Below are positions 1 through 39,743 of a stretch of 64,000 bases of DNA, piece after piece. Position 1 is the stretch's first letter, and every line of letters starts with the position of its first letter. Source of the stretch: Corallococcus sp. RDP092CA (GTDB lineage: Bacteria; Myxococcota; Myxococcia; Myxococcales; Myxococcaceae); contig NZ_JAYESI010000001.1 of the NCBI RefSeq assembly GCF_041903675.1, positions 224,643 through 288,642 of the forward strand, in the 5' to 3' direction. The position numbers were made by a program, and so were the translations under genes. The notes under the pieces were generated by a model. That model saw only the letters and a list, made by a program, of their open reading frames with translations. It searched no databases and had not been told where the DNA came from.

Positions 1-644
1 TCTTCGGCTCGGGAGGGAAGGCCCTCTTCGCGGTGCAGCCCTTCGCCCGGGTGCTGGAGGGCGTCGTGGAGCGCTACGGCATCCAGACGCACTTCGGCCA
101 TGACCTGGTCGAGGTGCGCGCGGCCCGCCGCGAGGCCGTCTTCGCGGTGACGCGCGAGGGGCGCCGGGAGGAGGTGACGCTGGGGTATGATCTGCTGCAC
201 GTCACGCCGCCGCAGAGCGCGCCGGACTTCATCAAGCGCAGCGCGCTGGCGCACGCGGACGGACCGAACGCGGGCTGGGTCAAGGCGCACAAGCACACGC
301 TGCAGCACCCGGACCACCCGAACGTCTTCGCCATTGGAGACGCCAGCGACCTGCCCACCTCCCGCACGGGCGCCGCCGTCCGGGCGGAGGCGCCCGTCCT
401 CGTGGAGAACCTGGTGGCGGTGATGGCGGGGCGCGAGCCCACGGCCCGCTACGACGGCTATGCGTCCTGTCCGCTGGTGACGGGCTACGGGCGGATGCTG
501 CTCGCCGAGTTCGACTACGAGGGCCGGCCCGCGCCGAGCCTGCCGCTCATCAACACCTTCGTGGAGCGCCGGGACCTGTGGCTCTTGAAGAAGTACGGGC
601 TGCCGCGCCTGTACTGGGACGGCATGCTTCGTGGGCGCGCGTGA
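1..644 (+). CDS. sqr: Sulfide:quinone oxidoreductase-like FAD-dependent pyridine nucleotide-disulfide oxidoreductase. The 5' end is cut by the window edge and only the C-terminal ~214 aa are present.
   Basis: The frame is open from nt 3 with no upstream stop, to TGA 642-644. The C-terminal sequence FAIGDASDLPTSRTGAAVRAEAPVLVENLVAVMAG...YDGYASCPLVTGYG...LLKKYGLPRLYWDGMLRGRA is typical of the type II SQR C-terminal and quinone-binding region. Confidence 0.8.
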   Translation, partial: FGSGGKALFAVQPFARVLEGVVERYGIQTHFGHDLVEVRAARREAVFAVTREGRREEVTLGYDLLHVTPPQSAPDFIKRSALAHADGPNAGWVKAHKHTLQHPDHPNVFAIGDASDLPTSRTGAAVRAEAPVLVENLVAVMAGREPTARYDGYASCPLVTGYGRMLLAEFDYEGRPAPSLPLINTFVERRDLWLLKKYGLPRLYWDGMLRGRA

Positions 645-700
645 ACACTCGCGCAAGGGACTGCTCGACGGTGGGCCCTGCTCGTGCGACGTTCGCGGCC

Positions 701-1339
<639 letters not shown>

Positions 1340-1436
1340 GGCCGCCGGGCTGACGGGGTGGTGAGCGCCGAGCGCGGCGCAAGGCAATGTCGTGACGCGC
1401 CCTCCACCTCGGTCCGGCGGTCTACGACCTCCGGCG

Positions 1437-1991
1437 CTATCGCTTCCACACCACCCGGTCCCCATCGGCCTGGCAGTGCCCTCGCTGAAGAAGCAAGGTC
1501 AGCCCGGCTTCGAGGACCGGGATCACCGCCCGGGTCAGCCGTTGGATGCCGAAGCAGCGGGCTGTCTCCCGGAGCAGGTCCTCGCGCTCCAGCGAGAGCG
1601 CCTCGGTGAGCACGGCCCCCGCGGCGTTGGCCACCTCCTCGGGGGGAAGGTGGGCGGCCTCGCGGTCCGGATGCGCGCCACGAAAGCCTGTGTACTGCGC
1701 GGGCCCCCGGCTGGGCGACCAGAGGAACTCCCCGACGACCGTCACGGCCCCGCGCTTCGCCAGTGACGGGACGAGCTGCTCGGTGGGCGCGGAGAACGGC
1801 GTGCCCCCAGGTCCGCGTTGGCCGGGCCCGTCGTGTTGCAGCCTATGGCCGTGGCGTAGGGCATGGAGGTGACGGTGTCCGGCGAGTGCACCAGCGCGCC
1901 AGTGGCCGTGGCGTAGGTCTGCTCGTTGGTGTCCACGCTCAAGGTCGCGCGGGCCAACCGGATGCGCGTGAAGTGCGTGCGCCCTTGCCAA
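1437..1991 (-). CDS. Hypothetical protein. Only the C-terminal ~100 aa (..EVANAAGAVLTEALSLEREDLLRETARCFGIQRLTRAVIPVLEAGLTLLLQRG..) look protein-like. The N-terminal part of the ORF is low-complexity and the true start is probably internal.
   Basis: GC3 is high over the 3' ~300 nt. No recognisable motif. Lies between the carbonic anhydrase gene and the 3' end of the megasynthetase gene. Confidence 0.2.
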   Translation of the reverse strand: MARAHALHAHPVGPRDLERGHQRADLRHGHWRAGALAGHRHLHALRHGHRLQHDGPGQRGPGGTPFSAPTEQLVPSLAKRGAVTVVGEFLWSPSRGPAQYTGFRGAHPDREAAHLPPEEVANAAGAVLTEALSLEREDLLRETARCFGIQRLTRAVIPVLEAGLTLLLQRGHCQADGDRVVWKR

Positions 1992-2065
1992 GGTGGCCGC
2001 CCCGGGAGCGTGCCCGTCCTGGCCCCGCGCGCTGGCACCTCCCTGGGGATGCCCTGTCAGTCCTC

Positions 2066-35208
<33,143 letters not shown>

Positions 35209-35969
35209 TGGGTCGGAGACTCCTTGGGAGGGGGCCTCGCGAACGCTCGGGAAGGCGATGTGACGGGTTCCCGGACTCGCGAGCGCGCGGGATAGTAGAC
35301 AGGCCCTCCGACACGGCCGCAGCGATTTGCTCATGGGGACCTGGCGGTCAGCCAACTGGGGAGCGCGGAGGTGCGAGGCGCGTGGACCCTGCGGAAATTC
35401 CGCTCCACGCATGGTGTCTGGTGACGTATTTCAGCGGTGTTTCACCGTGGTGTTGGAACGCTCGCGCTGGACGTTTCCGCTAGACTTTGGGAAGGCCCGA
35501 GCTCTTCCGGATCCGCGAAGCCCACCTCGCCGATGCTGCGCGGAGCTCGCAGGTGCTACGCGACGCCCCGAGTCATCCCGTGGCTGTCTGTATCCACCGT
35601 CCGGCGCGCGCGACAAGGCAGAGGCCGTGATGCGGCGCGAGCTGTCAGATATGGCGGCGCGTTCGTCGCGGAGGCGGAGGGCATCCGCTTCGGCTGCGTG
35701 TTCTTCCATCCGAAGGGAGTGCCCCCGTCCCTGGATCGGCACGTGGCGCTGCCGTTGCACGGGGCCAGGGCATGGCACTGCACCTCATCGAGGAGGTGGA
35801 GACTCGAGCGAGAGAGCTGGGGCAGCGGCGCGCGCGGCTTTTGGTGAGGCGCGCGCTCACGCCGCACCATGCGTGGTACTCACACCTGGGCCGTGCCTTC
35901 CATTCCCATGGCACGCATGCCGGTCATGCGTCGCCGACGTTCCGGGTGTTGGAGAAGATGCTCTGCGCG
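35209..35969. promoter_or_regulatory. Upstream and promoter region of the megasynthetase gene, with the AAGGAG RBS 13 nt before the ATG. It is shared with the 3' end region of the oxidoreductase gene.
   Basis: A non-coding stretch lies between the ATG (about 35208) and the oxidoreductase stop (35970). It contains fragments of a GNAT-like coding sequence in two frames. Confidence 0.4.
35640..35960 (+). pseudogene. Possible frameshifted remnant of a GNAT-family N-acetyltransferase.
   Basis: One frame gives ..GGAFVAEAEGIRFGCVFFHPKGVP..VALPLHGAR.. Another frame gives ..GMALHLIEEVETRARELGQRRARLLVRRALTPHHAWYSHLGRAF.. Joined by a +1/-1 shift near 35765, this resembles GNAT motif A and B (V.P..RG.G.A..L.E.VE..AR.LG.RR..L.V...N..A...Y..LGF). 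No intact ORF with a proper stop exists. Confidence 0.25.
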
Positions 35970-37021
35970 TCAGTCGCGAGGGAGCAGCGGGATGCGGCGG
36001 CCTTCCAGGTCGCTCTGGAGCGCGGCCTGGATGACGCGCACGGTCTCGCTCGCGCTCAGCGCCGTCACGGGCACGGGCGCTCCATGGAGGATGGCGGCGC
36101 CGAGCTGCCGGTAGAACTGGCCGTAGTCGCCGGGCACGGTGGTGACGGTCTCCCCCGAGGCGAGCAGCCGGCCATGGCGCTCCACGGGCTCGCGGCCGAA
36201 GTCCGGATGGCCGGGACGCAAGCCTGCTTCGAGCTGTCCCTCCTGCGGATCCAGTTCGTGCTTCAGGTAGGCATCCCGGTCGCCCTGTAAAACGAAGCGG
36301 GGCCACGGTGCATGCACGACGGAGCCGGAGTGCAGCACCACTCGCAGCGTGCCGTAGCGAAGGACCAGGTGGAACCAGTCTGTCCCCTGCGCGCCCGGGC
36401 GCTGCCGGCCGAGGTCGGCGGTCACGGACTCCGGCAGGCCGAAGAGCTGCACGGCCTGGTCGATGAGGTGCGAGCCCAGGTCCCACAGCGTGCCGCCGCC
36501 GGGCACATTCTGTTCCTTCCAGCGAGCCTTCACCTGGGGCCGGAAGCGGTCGAAGTGGCTCTCCATGCTGTAGAGCGTCCCGAGCCGTCCCTGTTCCAGC
36601 AACTGGCGCACGGTGAGGAAGTCCCCGTCCCAGCGGCGGTTATGGAACACGGAGAGGCACAGCCCACGCTCCTTGGCGAGCGCATCCAGTCGCAGCGCTT
36701 CGTCCGCGTCGAGCGTGACGGGCTTCTCCACCACCACATGTTTGTCCGCGCGCAGCGCCTGTCGCGCGAGCGACGCGTGCGAGTCATTGGGAGTGCACAC
36801 GACGAGCACATCCAGGTCCGGATCCGCCAGCAGTGACTCCACGGTGCCGGTGCGGACGCCAGGCCAGTCGCGGGTCACGGTGTCCACGCGGCTCGATGCC
36901 ACGGCGGCCAGGGTCAACGCGGGCTCCGCGGCGATGAGGGGTCCATGGAAGCGAGAACCAGACAAGCCATAGCCGAGGAGGCCCACCCGCAACGGGGAGC
37001 CAGGGACGCGAGTGGAGGTCA
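35970..37021 (-). CDS. Gfo/Idh/MocA-family NAD(P)-dependent oxidoreductase.
   Basis: N-terminal Rossmann motif MTSTRVPGSPLRVGLLGYGLSGSRFHGPLIAA, then ..VVCTPNDSHASLARQALRADKHVVVEKP.. The ATG is near 37019-37021. The track ORF extends further, to 37142. Confidence 0.85.
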
Positions 37022-37149
37022 TGGCCCGAAAGGGTAGCGGGAAGTGCTCCCGATGCGGATAGACATGAGGACCTGTCCCTGCCACCTTCCCGACATCCGC
37101 CGCCACGAAGGGCATCAGGAGAAGGACGCAGCAGGGGGCCACGACGTCG

Positions 37150-37460
37150 TGCCTGGGTGAATGCCCACACAGGCCCCGGATGGAAGCAGGGGGGAATGCG
37201 AGGTCGTGTCACGGCGGCCGCAAAGGCGAAGCCACAGGGGGAGTCTGCGGCGAACCGCGACGTCACGTTGACGCGGTCGCAGAGGTGAACCACGGATGGA
37301 ATCGGCGGTCCTCTGCGACGTCGTGCCAACGCGGATGCAGAGGCAAAGCCACGGGCGGAGACAGCGATGAACCGCGACGTCGTGCCATTACGAGGCCAAG
37401 GGTAAGGGCACGAATGGAGGTCGCGATAGGTCGGGACACCTTGCCGACGAGGGACAAGCG
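37150..37460. repeat. Degenerate tandem repeat of about five units of 58-60 nt, in an intergenic region.
   Basis: Units resemble gtcgtg(c/t)ca..gcg..gcagagg(c/t)(a/g)aagccac(a/g)gg(c/g)ggag.c.gcg(a/g)tgaaccgcgac, for example at 37197-37255, 37256-37313 and 37314-37372. Confidence 0.6.
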
Positions 37461-37599
37461 CGAAGCCACAGGCAGAGGCCGCAGTGCCTTCCTTCGCGGA
37501 TGCAAAGTGGAGCTGCGAACGGAGGCACCGGTGGGCGCGACTTCATCCCTGCGCGGCCTCAATGATGGGGCACGGACAGGGCCACCTGCCGGGCTCGCT

Positions 37600-38190
37600 T
37601 TCCGGAAACCTGTCCGACAGTCGGACAAGCTTTCGCCACACGGTGCCCGAACTCGAGACCGAGTCCGACAGTCGGCCAGCCCTGCGCCAATTGGGGCCGA
37701 AGTCGCGAACGAGTCCGACAGTCGGACAGGCCCGTGCCAACGGGGGCCGAAGTCGCGAACGAGTCCGACAGTCAGACAGGCCCGCGCCAACCGAGGTTCG
37801 ATCTCGCGAACAAGTCCGACAGTCAGACAGGTCCTCGCCAACTGGGGCCGATTCCGCGAACGAGTTCGGCAGTCGGACAGGTTCGCGCCAACTGAGGTTC
37901 GTTTCGCGAGAGAGTCCGACAGTCAGACAGGTCTGCGCTGCGGGACCAGAGTCAGCAAACGTGTCCGATAGTCGGACTGGTTTTCACAGCCCGCGGTCCG
38001 TGCTCGTGAACGAGTCCGGCAATCGGACGGGTCTACGCTTTGGGGCCAGAGCCAGCGAACCTGTCGGACTGTCGGACTGGGTTTCACACTGAGGAGCGAG
38101 CCCACGCGCCTGTCCGACAGTCTGACTGGGCTTCGCGACCCGCAACCGGAGCTCACGGACGTGTCCGACAGTCGGGCAGGTTTTCGCGCT
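37600..38190. repeat. Intergenic tandem array of about 12 copies with a ~50-nt period. It belongs to the same GTCCGACAGTCGGACAGG palindromic repeat family found inside NRPS module 9.
   Basis: Cores are at about 37620, 37670, 37711, 37762, 37813, 37863, 37913, 37963, 38010, 38062, 38111 and 38161. The inter-core segments are semi-conserved (..cccgcgccaac.ggggccgaagtcgcgaacga..), so they are not unique spacers. Confidence 0.85.
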
Positions 38191-38714
38191 CCGCGGGGCC
38201 GCGCCATATGGGCCGACGCGGACGGCGGGGTCGCGCATCCATCCATGTCAGACCCCCATGGTTGGATGGCGACGCTGAGACAAGGAAGGGGATGGGGATG
38301 GAGCGGGGCGGGCTCGTGGCGTACGTGGAAGCGCAGATTGAGCGCAAGATCGCGCTGGGGCAGATACACCCATCTGGGGAGTTCGCTTCGGAAGCGGAGC
38401 TGGCGCGTCGTGACAGGGTATGCCGGGGCACCATGCGTGAGGCGCTGCGACGGCTGGCGGCTCGAGGTCTGGGACCCTGCGCCGCTTCGCTCGGTGGACT
38501 GCGCGCCTCTGGCGCTTCATGGCCCATTCTCCAGGCCCACGTGCCTCGTGAGCGGCGGCAGCGCTGCGCGCCCACGAAGTTGCCCATGACGCTCCGCCTG
38601 TCCCCGCTTGAGGGGCAACACCGGACCCGGGGCTCTCCGGACGCGTCCTCCCGAGCCTGGTCTCCACTCCGGATTGCTCAACGAACTCCTCATGTCCTGC
38701 ATAGAGTTCGCACC

Positions 38715-39737
38715 ATGGACACCGTGCCCCTCATCGACGTCCGTGCCCTCGTCGACCCCACGTCGAGTCCCCAGTCCCGACGGGAGGTCGCCGCCCACAT
38801 GGGCGCGGCCTGCAGGAACACCGGCTTCTTCTACGTCGTGGGCCACGGCGTGGACGAGGGACTCCAGTCCCGGCTGGATGCGCTGGCCCGGGACTTCTTC
38901 GCCCGGCCGGAGGAGGAGAAGCAGCGCGTGCGCATGGGGCTCGGGGGGAGGGCGTGGCGGGGCTTCTTCCCCGTGGGCGGAGAGCTCACTTCAGGCCGGC
39001 CGGACCGCAAGGAGGGGCTCTACTTCGGGACGGAACTGCCGCCGGATGACCCTCGCGTGCGCGCCGGCACGCCGCTGCATGGTCCGAACCTGTTCCCCCT
39101 GGAGCCGGCGGGACTGGGCTGCGCGGTGCTCGAGTACATGGCGGCGCTGACGTCCCTGGGACACGCGCTGATGTCCGGTATCGCGCTCAGCCTGGACCTG
39201 GAGGCGGACTTCTTCGCCAGGCGGTACATGGCGGATCCAACGGTGCTGTTCCGCATCTTCAACTACCCGCCGGGCCCGGAGGTGGACTCCCAGGGGCTCC
39301 CGGTCTGGGGCGTGGGCGAGCACACCGACTACGGCGTGCTCACCATCCTCAAGCAGGACGACGCGGGCGGGCTCCAGGTGAAGACGCGCCAGGACGGCCA
39401 TACGCGCTGGGTGGACGCGCCTCCGGTGGAGAACGCGTTCGTGTGCAACATCGGCGACATGCTCGACCGGATGACGCGCGGCGTGTACCGCTCCACCCCG
39501 CACCGGGTGCGCAACCGCGCGGGCCGCGACCGGCTGTCCCTGCCGCTCTTCTTCGACCCGGACTGGACGGCGGAGGTGCGGGCCATCGACTCGCCCGCAC
39601 TGAAGGACGCGGGCGCGGACGACCACGCGGAGCGGTGGGACCGCCAGAGCGTCCACGCGTTCCAGGGCACCTATGGGGACTACCTGCTCGGCAAGGTGGG
39701 GAAGGTGTTCCCCGACCTGCGCGCGGAGGTGCTGTAG
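38715..39737 (+). CDS. 2-oxoglutarate/Fe(II)-dependent oxygenase (isopenicillin-N-synthase-like family).
   Basis: ATG at 38715 (MDTVPLIDVRALVD). The HxD...H iron triad is present: GVGEHTDYGVLTIL and TPHRVRN. The RxS motif RLSLPLFF is present. N-terminal DIOX_N-like region: AACRNTGFFYVVGHGV. The track ORF 38040.. has an artefactual N-terminus that translates the repeat array. Confidence 0.85.
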   Translation: MDTVPLIDVRALVDPTSSPQSRREVAAHMGAACRNTGFFYVVGHGVDEGLQSRLDALARDFFARPEEEKQRVRMGLGGRAWRGFFPVGGELTSGRPDRKEGLYFGTELPPDDPRVRAGTPLHGPNLFPLEPAGLGCAVLEYMAALTSLGHALMSGIALSLDLEADFFARRYMADPTVLFRIFNYPPGPEVDSQGLPVWGVGEHTDYGVLTILKQDDAGGLQVKTRQDGHTRWVDAPPVENAFVCNIGDMLDRMTRGVYRSTPHRVRNRAGRDRLSLPLFFDPDWTAEVRAIDSPALKDAGADDHAERWDRQSVHAFQGTYGDYLLGKVGKVFPDLRAEVL

Positions 39738-39743
39738 CGACGC

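Follow-up and report, generated by a model that had tools for sequence, protein, structure and literature searches.

What is a twelve-copy array of palindromic repeats between two divergently transcribed genes, and what could it do there? The array in question is found in Corallococcus sp. RDP092CA, in a stretch of 64,000 nt (contig NZ_JAYESI010000001.1, positions 224,643 to 288,642 of the forward strand) that is called the window in what follows. It belongs to the 1691-nt spacer between a gene for an oxidoreductase of the GFO/IDH/MocA family (the MocA gene) and a gene for a 2-oxoglutarate (2OG)-Fe(II) oxygenase. Two tandem arrays lie in this spacer: array 1 is built of degenerate units, and array 2 of units that each carry a short palindromic core (Table 1). 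Comparison with related genomes shows that array 2 is a lineage-specific tandem expansion of a palindromic element dispersed throughout the genus Corallococcus, placed upstream of the gene in a regulator cassette that is now dead. As for function, the chances appear evenly balanced that the 27-nt core is the operator of a family of FadR/GntR-type regulators which control their own genes, and that the array is a set of multiplied operators.

The core GTCCGACAGTCGGAC is found twelve times at 0-2 mismatches within 37612-38177, with successive spacings of 51, 50, 50, 51, 50, 50, 49, 51, 49, 49 and 51 nt, which bears out a preliminary description of this DNA that had counted twelve palindromic copies at a period of about 50-51 nt. 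At three mismatches or fewer, the whole window holds 62 matches on both strands, against 4.8 +/- 2.4 in shuffled sequences, none of 100 of which reached 62; the matches are concentrated in two blocks, 37612-38177 and 5798-6727, the latter inside a non-ribosomal peptide synthetase (NRPS) gene, and a common motif that recurs at random is excluded as their source. The call made by Tandem Repeats Finder (TRF) on 37612-37938 (50-nt unit, 6.5 copies, 80% matches) corresponds to the better-preserved left half of array 2. Later units are more diverged than those of the call, and in the alignment units 8-12 are of two alternating types, which gives a higher-order period of about 100 nt. Mean pairwise identity between units is 0.75 in the 27-nt core and 0.52 in the linker.

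Both spacer arrays are non-coding, because the open reading frames (ORFs) that overlap them have a flat GC content of 0.64-0.66 at codon positions 1, 2 and 3 and none of these ORFs matches Pfam; in the real genes nearby the GC content of third codon positions (GC3) is 0.92-0.94. A terminator role for array 2 is unlikely, since its units fold as RNA no better than shuffled sequences (z -0.1 to -1.7) and mostly lack U tracts. Terminator-like matches in 36900-38900 number one, which is the chance level, and a scan of the same interval for sigma-70-like promoters returned no site. No Rfam family was found at the gathering threshold in the window and 17 related loci.

The arrays had been described as the promoter region of two oxidoreductase genes; they are rather the upstream region of a third gene which had been missed, that of a FadR/GntR-type regulator. 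The truncated gene spans 38292-38551. Its 5' remnant matches the Pfam GntR model PF00392 (E 3e-6, 27.2 bits with a cut-off of 27) and is 83% identical in nucleotides to positions 6850-7076 of the C. interemptor locus L117 (blastn), and its 3' remnant was compared in translation (TLRRFARWTARLWRFMAHSPGPRAS and GTLGRLGWWAARLWRSIASSLGARDS, each followed by a stop). Relative to C. interemptor, about 805 nt of the gene have been deleted internally and out of frame, so the window copy is, judged by this alignment, a pseudogene. Upstream of the regulator genes the alignment has a constant order, which is core, variable GC-rich stretch, nearly invariant leader, Shine-Dalgarno-like stretch and start codon. 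The leader block is nearly invariant across 21 paralog upstream regions, and 1-nt indels in it exclude a coding role. The two arrays make up about 56% of the spacer, and what lies outside them includes the GntR-family pseudogene and the conserved leader, so the spacer is not, as had been stated, almost devoid of unique sequence. For the local annotation this means that an "empty" 1.7-kb spacer contains a dead regulator gene reading into the 2OG oxygenase gene. The frame of the remnant also runs stop-free into the 2OG ORF (38292-39737), and a chimera of 141 + 340 aa is formally possible.

The history of the spacer can be read from other species. The window is collinear with L117 of C. interemptor over the MocA gene (35900-37068 against 5434-6602), the regulator 5' region (38242-38467 against 6850-7076) and the 2OG gene (38680-39739 against 7966-9025). 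The spacer of C. interemptor has two cores and an intact regulator gene of 354 aa, and that of C. coralloides DSM 2259 (L125) four cores and an intact gene of 405 aa. The MocA and 2OG genes are also present in C. praedator and C. llansteffanensis, where the spacer between them contains neither cores nor regulator. In both species with an intact gene, the 2OG gene starts 10-36 nt past the regulator stop, and this short gap suggests that the two genes are co-transcribed there. On these alignments the window spacer is a derived state of the cassette, in which the unit has been multiplied to 12 copies, a 58-nt segment to about six, and the gene destroyed. The number of cores is 0, 2, 4 or 12 depending on the species, and these differences between orthologous spacers, together with the internal gene deletion and assembly breaks, confirm an earlier suggestion that the arrays are a hotspot for rearrangement. 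The breaks are seen in draft Corallococcus assemblies, which end at the MocA-2OG spacer: a C. carmarthensis contig (L121) begins within the regulator gene, where the assembly is broken at the repeats, and another draft (L122) begins at the 2OG gene. Since drafts break here, the arrays are a practical cause of fragmented biosynthetic gene clusters. The spacer of C. praedator and C. llansteffanensis has a small uncalled ORF of its own (about 7310-7935 in L118 and L119, about 7340-7925 in L120), which encodes a Cys-rich putative lipoprotein or secreted protein (MKTQKHAF...GCGDE...) with a C-terminal degenerate (A/S)DAG(V/A)-type repeat.

The regulator gene is the member of a large family, and the core accompanies it. 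A motif search of the scanned loci found 21 regulator genes, the window remnant included, and in each of them 108-138 nt separate the end of a core from the GLVAYVE motif downstream (133 nt in the window). Four further paralogs, picked by protein homology alone and independently of the core, all have a proximal core at 0-1 mismatches in 15, so that all 25 paralogs examined have a core, at about 110-140 nt before the conserved N-terminal motif. The paralogs differ by 6-25% in DNA, and the proximal core is nearly perfect. At nine loci two cores 1.0-1.2 kb apart bracket the gene, and most regulator copies have a second, degraded core in their 3' tail, which is translated as ..NLSDCRTG... Paralogs are homologous in DNA from a point 100-170 nt upstream of the proximal core to one short of the tail core. 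When 749 coding-like ORFs from 116 loci were clustered, the regulator was the only recurrent neighbour of the element besides the NRPS and a few other large families; no recurrent family recognised as a transposase or as a repetitive extragenic palindromic (REP)-associated tyrosine transposase (RAYT) was among them, a result which covers these loci.

A protein search returned 261 clusters at E < 1e-5, of which the best 120 are all from Corallococcus. The proximal core is kept in the four independently picked paralogs although proteins of the family are only 51-80% identical to the query of this search. With 7-10 or more paralogs per genome, annotated only as "FadR/GntR family transcriptional regulator", the family looks specific to Corallococcus on the evidence of this search. 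In C. exercitus SDU142 ten or more paralogs are scattered over the chromosome. Intact paralogs match PF00392 with E 8e-14, no NCBIfam model reached its cut-off for the regulator, and PADLOC assigned it to no defence family. In the AlphaFold model of one member (P0121), residues 1-70 form a winged helix-turn-helix; residues 80-231 form an all-alpha domain, which has a predicted local distance difference test (pLDDT) score above 90, and a disordered tail and a C-terminal helix follow. The intact proteins have, that is, the N-terminal GntR winged helix-turn-helix and the all-alpha domain required of the FadR/GntR family, and over about 230 columns Foldseek aligns the model, at probability 1.0, with NanR, FadR, McbR, PmiR, VanR and DhdR. 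Four residues, R45, T47, R49 and G66, do not vary within the family, and in a gap-free alignment they fall on the same positions of E. coli FadR, which are presumably DNA contacts.

Two further observations concern these genes. In several regulators (L011, L074 and others; P0121 residues 232-348) the tail is long, disordered and fast-evolving, with tandem repeats of about 24 aa in some of them; it contains the translated core and ends in a conserved amphipathic helix (GRWAARLWRFIA). In Corallococcus sp. EGB (L127), a 7-core array at 1403-1719, with a period of 49-51 nt and alternating unit types, closely resembles array 2, and a frameshifted remnant of an IS630-like transposase (about 1960-2860) lies between it and the proximal core and regulator gene.

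Beyond the regulator genes, the element forms a genuine repetitive family, as had been supposed. A census with the exact 18-mer GTCCGACAGTCGGACAGG in public genomes, one genome per species, gave at least 116 stretches, nearly all from Corallococcus (C. exercitus, C. coralloides, C. interemptor, C. carmarthensis, C. terminator, C. praedator, C. llansteffanensis, C. sicarius and C. aberystwythensis). Among the matches listed, two myxococcal metagenome-assembled genomes (MAGs) have many copies, and Archangium, Hyalangium and Vitiosangium have isolated ones. Matches in Rhizorhapis and in a MAG of the Gemmatimonadaceae, where the extended palindrome is missing, are probably due to chance, and only two stretches of viral contigs carry the 18-mer. 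The complete chromosome of C. exercitus SDU142 has the element, from 0.9 to 9.0 Mb, in 34 or more distinct blocks of 8 kb. The logo of 274 cores defines the conserved element as a 27-nt perfect palindrome, AAACCTGTCCGAC-A/T-GTCGGACAGGTTT, which is stop-free in all six frames. No published description of the family and no paper containing the core was found in the literature, a review of myxobacterial genomics (PMC8538405) does not mention it, and literature searches on myxobacterial REP elements, Corallococcus GntR paralogs and FadR-site strings yielded nothing relevant.

Most copies lie outside coding-like ORFs. In Corallococcus, cores are single or form head-to-tail direct repeats of core and linker, with 2-13 cores at dozens of loci, periods of 50-150 nt and linkers that are specific to the locus. 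Periods of 63-75 nt are the commonest; the core arrays of the window have 50 and 57 nt, and other arrays 83-85, 92, 101-109, 136-140 and 150 nt. This range agrees with the preliminary view that nothing holds the period fixed outside ORFs, and both of the arrays that were checked within ORFs have periods divisible by three (57 and 72 nt, with occasional in-frame units of 60 and 63 nt). In every one of the 17 arrays measured, units resemble each other more in the 27-mer than in the linker, which is partly an effect of ascertainment, as units were located through the core. Orthologous arrays of C. exercitus AB043A and SDU142 have 2 against 6, 3 against 9 and 2 against 9 cores, although one of these two assemblies is a low-coverage draft and may collapse repeats.

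The second block of the window is an array in frame with a gene. It is part of an NRPS ORF of 11082 aa (2066-35314, minus strand), where it is inserted between the adenylation (A)-domain motifs A2 (LAVNKAGGAFVPLD) and A3 (LAYVIYTSGSTGAPKG) and read as a 17-fold repeat of 19 aa, EPV(R/G)(L/Q)SDRF... (EPVRLSDRF/EPVGQSDRF...). The ortholog of C. coralloides KYC2213 (L097), which is 86-90% identical on both sides, has one core at the exact site of the 885 nt of the window, and relatives have NRPS lengths of 10780-10850 aa against 11082 aa in the window. GC3 is 0.67 in the insert against 0.92 in the remaining gene. Because the linkers of this array do not derive from flanking NRPS sequence, its units were imported or converted from another array rather than duplicated from local DNA. 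Another in-frame amplification within a gene is found in C. coralloides KYC2213 (7.15 Mb), where eight cores at 1608-2183 of L057 lie in a coding-like ORF (1-4842, GC3 0.89); they are mostly 72 nt apart, with one 63-nt unit in frame and a first gap of 138 nt, and are translated as a 24-aa repeat, NLSDSRTGLD.... The NRPS ORF of the window has other tandem repeats, at 19187-19340 and 20699-20914 with periods of 66 and 60 nt, both divisible by three, in which the core is absent.

How would a regulator use such sites? According to the operator reading, the TGT-N3-ACA boxes of the palindrome would be the target of a dimeric winged-helix protein of FadR fold, which would regulate its own gene and, in the sister species, also the 2OG oxygenase gene just downstream. 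Slippage between strands, unequal recombination or gene conversion from core to core would have produced the array. The 12 sites of the window would now be open only to paralogs encoded elsewhere in the genome, and the array, lying upstream of the promoter that still points towards the 2OG gene, could act as an operator bank or a decoy, while being also a recombination-prone variable-number tandem repeat (VNTR). Sites of the FadR subfamily are palindromes with TKGT/ACMA boxes, in which the distance from GT to AC is typically 3 nt (Suvorova et al. 2015, PMC4494728). The core reads TGT-CCG-ACA and its mirror, which agrees at three of four box positions per half with 3-nt spacing, in a GC-rich sequence with two overlapping boxes.

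Three things above all argue for an operator. However far the paralogs have diverged in DNA (up to about 25%), a nearly perfect core is always present upstream of them; it is also found in divergent spacers (L117 and L125), where a terminator would be pointless; and the protein has a FadR fold and the site a FadR-like box. The earlier idea of an iterated operator is in this way kept and given a concrete candidate protein, binding being inferred, and is given up as far as it concerned the two oxidoreductase genes as such.

Several points weigh against it. The link between protein and DNA is one of association only, and the local regulator gene is dead, so that any function here would depend on putative paralogs elsewhere in the genome. 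For most arrays and single cores, the 8-kb block that contains them holds no regulator gene. Many copies lie inside ORFs or between convergent or co-directional genes (convergent spacers hold 9 arrays and 20 single copies and divergent ones only 1 array, counts which are indicative because the gene-context classes come from a crude GC3-based ORF caller), so the element is not specific to promoters, and a selfish or structural element would show such a pattern more readily than a classical operator. The two GT-N3-AC boxes overlap at a distance of 8 bp, unlike a standard FadR site, and fall one position short of the TKGT/ACMA boxes in each half. The hairpin form of about 70 nt that is found in other genera and one MAG resembles a REP element, a miniature inverted-repeat transposable element (MITE) or a bidirectional terminator. 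Ascertainment of the 116 loci by an exact 18-mer also inflates the apparent conservation of the core, and the four loci picked independently offset this only partly.

These points lead to the main rival explanation, which is tentative at best: a hairpin element of REP or MITE type that spreads on its own and has no specific tie to the regulator, serving as a bidirectional terminator, a stabiliser of mRNA ends or the target of an unseen transposase, with the array as a neutral, decaying VNTR. Regulator genes would then carry copies at their ends since element and gene were duplicated together. In MAG MFD05674 and in Archangium, Vitiosangium and Hyalangium a longer palindrome of about 70 nt, which occurs singly, has the core in its middle, with outer arms CCTCCCGGGCGCG and CGCGCCCGGGAGG around AAACCTGTCCGAC-N-GTCGGACAGGTTT, A and U tracts beside the stem and RNA fold z-scores of -4.8 to -4.95. 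A terminator-shaped copy of the canonical kind is seen also in the proximal core of L117 (A6-stem-U6, z = -4.95). A metagenome scan with the outer-arm pattern found 8 unrelated GC-rich palindromes, none of them with the core. Given this palindrome in other genera, the commonest Corallococcus period (69-73 nt) equals the length of one full element, and the 50-nt and 57-nt units of the window are by this comparison shortened derivatives of it. The absence of the regulator gene near most arrays, the convergent and co-directional locations and a core that is stop-free in any frame and has invaded ORFs are what such an element would show.

The hairpin explanation fares less well with other facts. 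The 116 loci hold no recurrent family recognised as a transposase or RAYT, and the arrays are head-to-tail and not inverted doublets of the REPIN type. The units of the window fold like shuffles, mostly without U tracts, and yet the 15-nt core has been kept. About one third of the non-seed cores have the form GTCGGACAGTCGGAC, in which the palindrome is broken with no compensating change, although the compensatory-change test for a hairpin is weak, its counts being confounded by shared descent within arrays. A near-perfect proximal core upstream of paralogs diverged by about 25%, and its presence in divergent spacers, also speak against it.

That regulator and palindromes spread together is a doubtful proposition in its general form, in which the gene would multiply with its bracketing palindromes as a self-spreading module and seed arrays, some of which came to be translated in NRPS and other genes; somewhat less probable is that a self-propagating cassette of regulator and operator, bracketed by its own palindromes, seeded the arrays and left a dead copy in the window. 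The scattered paralogs of C. exercitus SDU142 with their bounded homology, the presence or absence of the cassette at the same chromosomal site among species, the bracketing cores at nine loci and the foreign linkers of the NRPS array, which point to imported units, would all fit a mobile cassette. However, no recombinase or transposase, no target-site duplication and no defined ends were found, the 6-25% divergence between paralogs also fits old duplications, and presence or absence may reflect deletion or replacement instead of insertion.

It is improbable that the arrays evolved as an iterated operator or a nucleoid-protein platform for two divergent "tailoring" genes of the NRPS cluster, a reading that builds on the preliminary description. 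They do sit between the two divergent genes, and the former regulator promoter faces the 2OG gene, which lies 10-36 nt past the regulator in sister species. However, C. praedator and C. llansteffanensis keep both genes with no core and C. interemptor with only two, so the array is not needed for them. The MocA start is about 120 nt from the nearest array edge and about 590 nt from the core array, and the family is genome-wide and untied to biosynthetic clusters. The label of a tailoring gene is itself doubtful for the 2OG oxygenase, which is broadly conserved outside biosynthetic clusters, with homologues 65-77% identical across Myxococcota and Planctomycetes. It is scarcely credible that the arrays are decayed coding sequence of a former repeat protein, or a CRISPR-like array, even though long ORFs overlap them and the same core is translated in the NRPS gene and L057: units of 49, 50 and 51 nt shift the frame, GC is flat over the codon positions and Pfam gives no match, which rejects the former, and the linkers are 52-80% identical to one another, Rfam gives no family and no Cas family matches the ORFs of the region, which rejects the latter.

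The degenerate repeat which had been reported as about five copies of 58-60 nt at 37150-37460 is present as array 1, with six units of 58-59 nt over a longer interval and with its clearest periodicity at 117 nt (four repeat families, spaced 116-117 nt); TRF does not report it, the units being too degenerate. Its counterpart is single-copy in C. interemptor (L117 6640-6700) and lies also inside the 134-138-nt units of the C. coralloides DSM 2259 locus, so that array 1 is, from these alignments, an expansion of a segment which is single-copy upstream of the cores in sister species. The MocA gene, outside the element, is collinear with, and 88% identical to, a called gene of 350 aa in C. interemptor (L117 5504-6556). 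Across the MocA 5' end and array 1 (36800-37800) the AT skew is strongly positive, 0.3-0.4 on the plus strand (A > T).

Table 1. Coordinates of the spacer features, their flanks and related loci. Positions are those of the window; L117 is the C. interemptor locus.
Feature	Position	Strand	Description
MocA-family oxidoreductase gene, left flank, outside the element	35973..37023	-	Pfam PF01408, PF02894, PF22725
Array 1	37145..37497	+	Six degenerate 58-59-nt units; consensus GACG|TCGTGCC..GCAAAGGCGA.GCCACGG.TGGA..GCGACG (alignment)
Unique lead-in to first core	37567..37611	+	Window 37567-37631 matches L117 6681-6744, 85% (blastn)
Array 2	37600..38200	+	Twelve 49-51-nt units, each with core GTCCGAC-A-GTCGGAC and a linker of about 32 nt
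Core starts 1-6 of array 2	37612, 37663, 37713, 37763, 37814, 37864	+	
Core starts 7-12 of array 2	37914, 37963, 38014, 38063, 38112, 38163	+	
Proximal core	38163..38177	+	Position relative to regulator gene as in all intact paralogs; putative autoregulatory operator
Conserved leader of regulator gene	38235..38291	+	..CATCCATGTCAGACCCCCATGGTTGGATGG..AAGGAAGGGG; includes Shine-Dalgarno-like stretch
Regulator 5' remnant, FadR/GntR family	38292..38471	+	ATG 38292; first 60 aa, helix-turn-helix without wing
Regulator 3' remnant	38470..38551	+	Last 82 nt; L117 7884-7965, 76% (blastn); conserved C-terminal helix, other frame
2OG-Fe(II) oxygenase gene, right flank	38715..39737	+	Pfam PF14226, PF03171
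NRPS array, same family	5798..6727	-	17 cores, period 57 nt (one unit 60), in frame
Paralog loci picked by protein homology			L125, 4 cores; L126, 2; L127, 1 and a 7-core array; L128, 2
Single-core loci of MAG MFD05674			L006, L008, L010, L012, L013, L019, L022, L028, L030, L053, L066, L090, L114
Other single-core loci			L023, L064, L075 (Archangium); L044 (Vitiosangium); L049 (Hyalangium)

Should the regulator bind the core, this would be a rare bacterial case of a transcription-factor family and its site expanding together over a genome, and the arrays of up to 13 copies would be titration banks or architectural platforms. If a self-spreading module is real, a transcription factor would play the part that a "transposase" has in a REP-like family, or bacteria would have their own version of the way in which transposons spread transcription-factor binding sites in eukaryotes. 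Whatever its function, the family breaks draft assemblies at biosynthetic gene clusters and offers VNTR markers for strain typing, and its translated repeats of 19-24 aa in an NRPS adenylation-domain loop matter for the annotation and engineering of megasynthases.

Among known systems, the operators of the FadR subfamily (FadR, PdhR, LldR, DgoR, and NanR with its repeated boxes) share with the core a GT-N3-AC palindrome upstream of the gene of the regulator, a position which the core holds in 25 of 25 paralogs, and the protein here is likewise predicted to have the FadR fold. The known operators are A/T-rich and number 1-3 per promoter, whereas the core is GC-rich, 27 nt long, iterated up to 13 times and present at dozens of loci without the gene. 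Plasmid iterons and centromere-like arrays are binding repeats directly upstream of the gene of an autoregulated winged-helix protein, an arrangement which the core would share; the family described here is, unlike them, chromosomal and multi-locus, with no replication or partition gene and with a protein folded like metabolite-sensing regulators. Terminator-like MITEs such as Correia and enterobacterial repetitive intergenic consensus (ERIC) elements resemble the long hairpin of about 70 nt with A/T tracts that occurs in single intergenic copies in several genera, but here no terminal inverted repeats with target-site duplication were recognised, and the tandem form dominates in Corallococcus.

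The likeness to the mycobacterial interspersed repetitive units (MIRU-VNTR) of Mycobacterium tuberculosis lies in tandem units of 40-100 nt at dispersed, mostly intergenic loci and in copy numbers that vary at the same locus between strains or species (here 0, 2, 4 and 12). In Corallococcus tandem units are found at dozens of loci, and the number of copies is variable at orthologous sites (1 against 17 at the NRPS site); the differences are a strictly conserved 27-nt palindrome in each unit, a unit length that depends on the locus and the link to a regulator. REP elements and bacterial interspersed mosaic elements (BIMEs), and the REPIN-RAYT systems of Enterobacteria and Pseudomonas, are likewise short GC-rich palindromes in many, mostly extragenic and often clustered copies, and have a particular gene flanked by copies of the element. 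That gene is there a single-copy HUH tyrosine transposase and here a multi-copy FadR/GntR-type regulator; the copies form inverted doublets there, and here head-to-tail arrays with array-specific linkers and also in-frame copies within genes. Two defining features of REP/RAYT systems are therefore not seen in the family, as no RAYT was found at the 116 loci and the copies are not inverted doublets. Taken by analogy, it may best be regarded as a cross of three kinds, which are REP/BIME elements, MIRU-type minisatellites and an iterated FadR-type operator.

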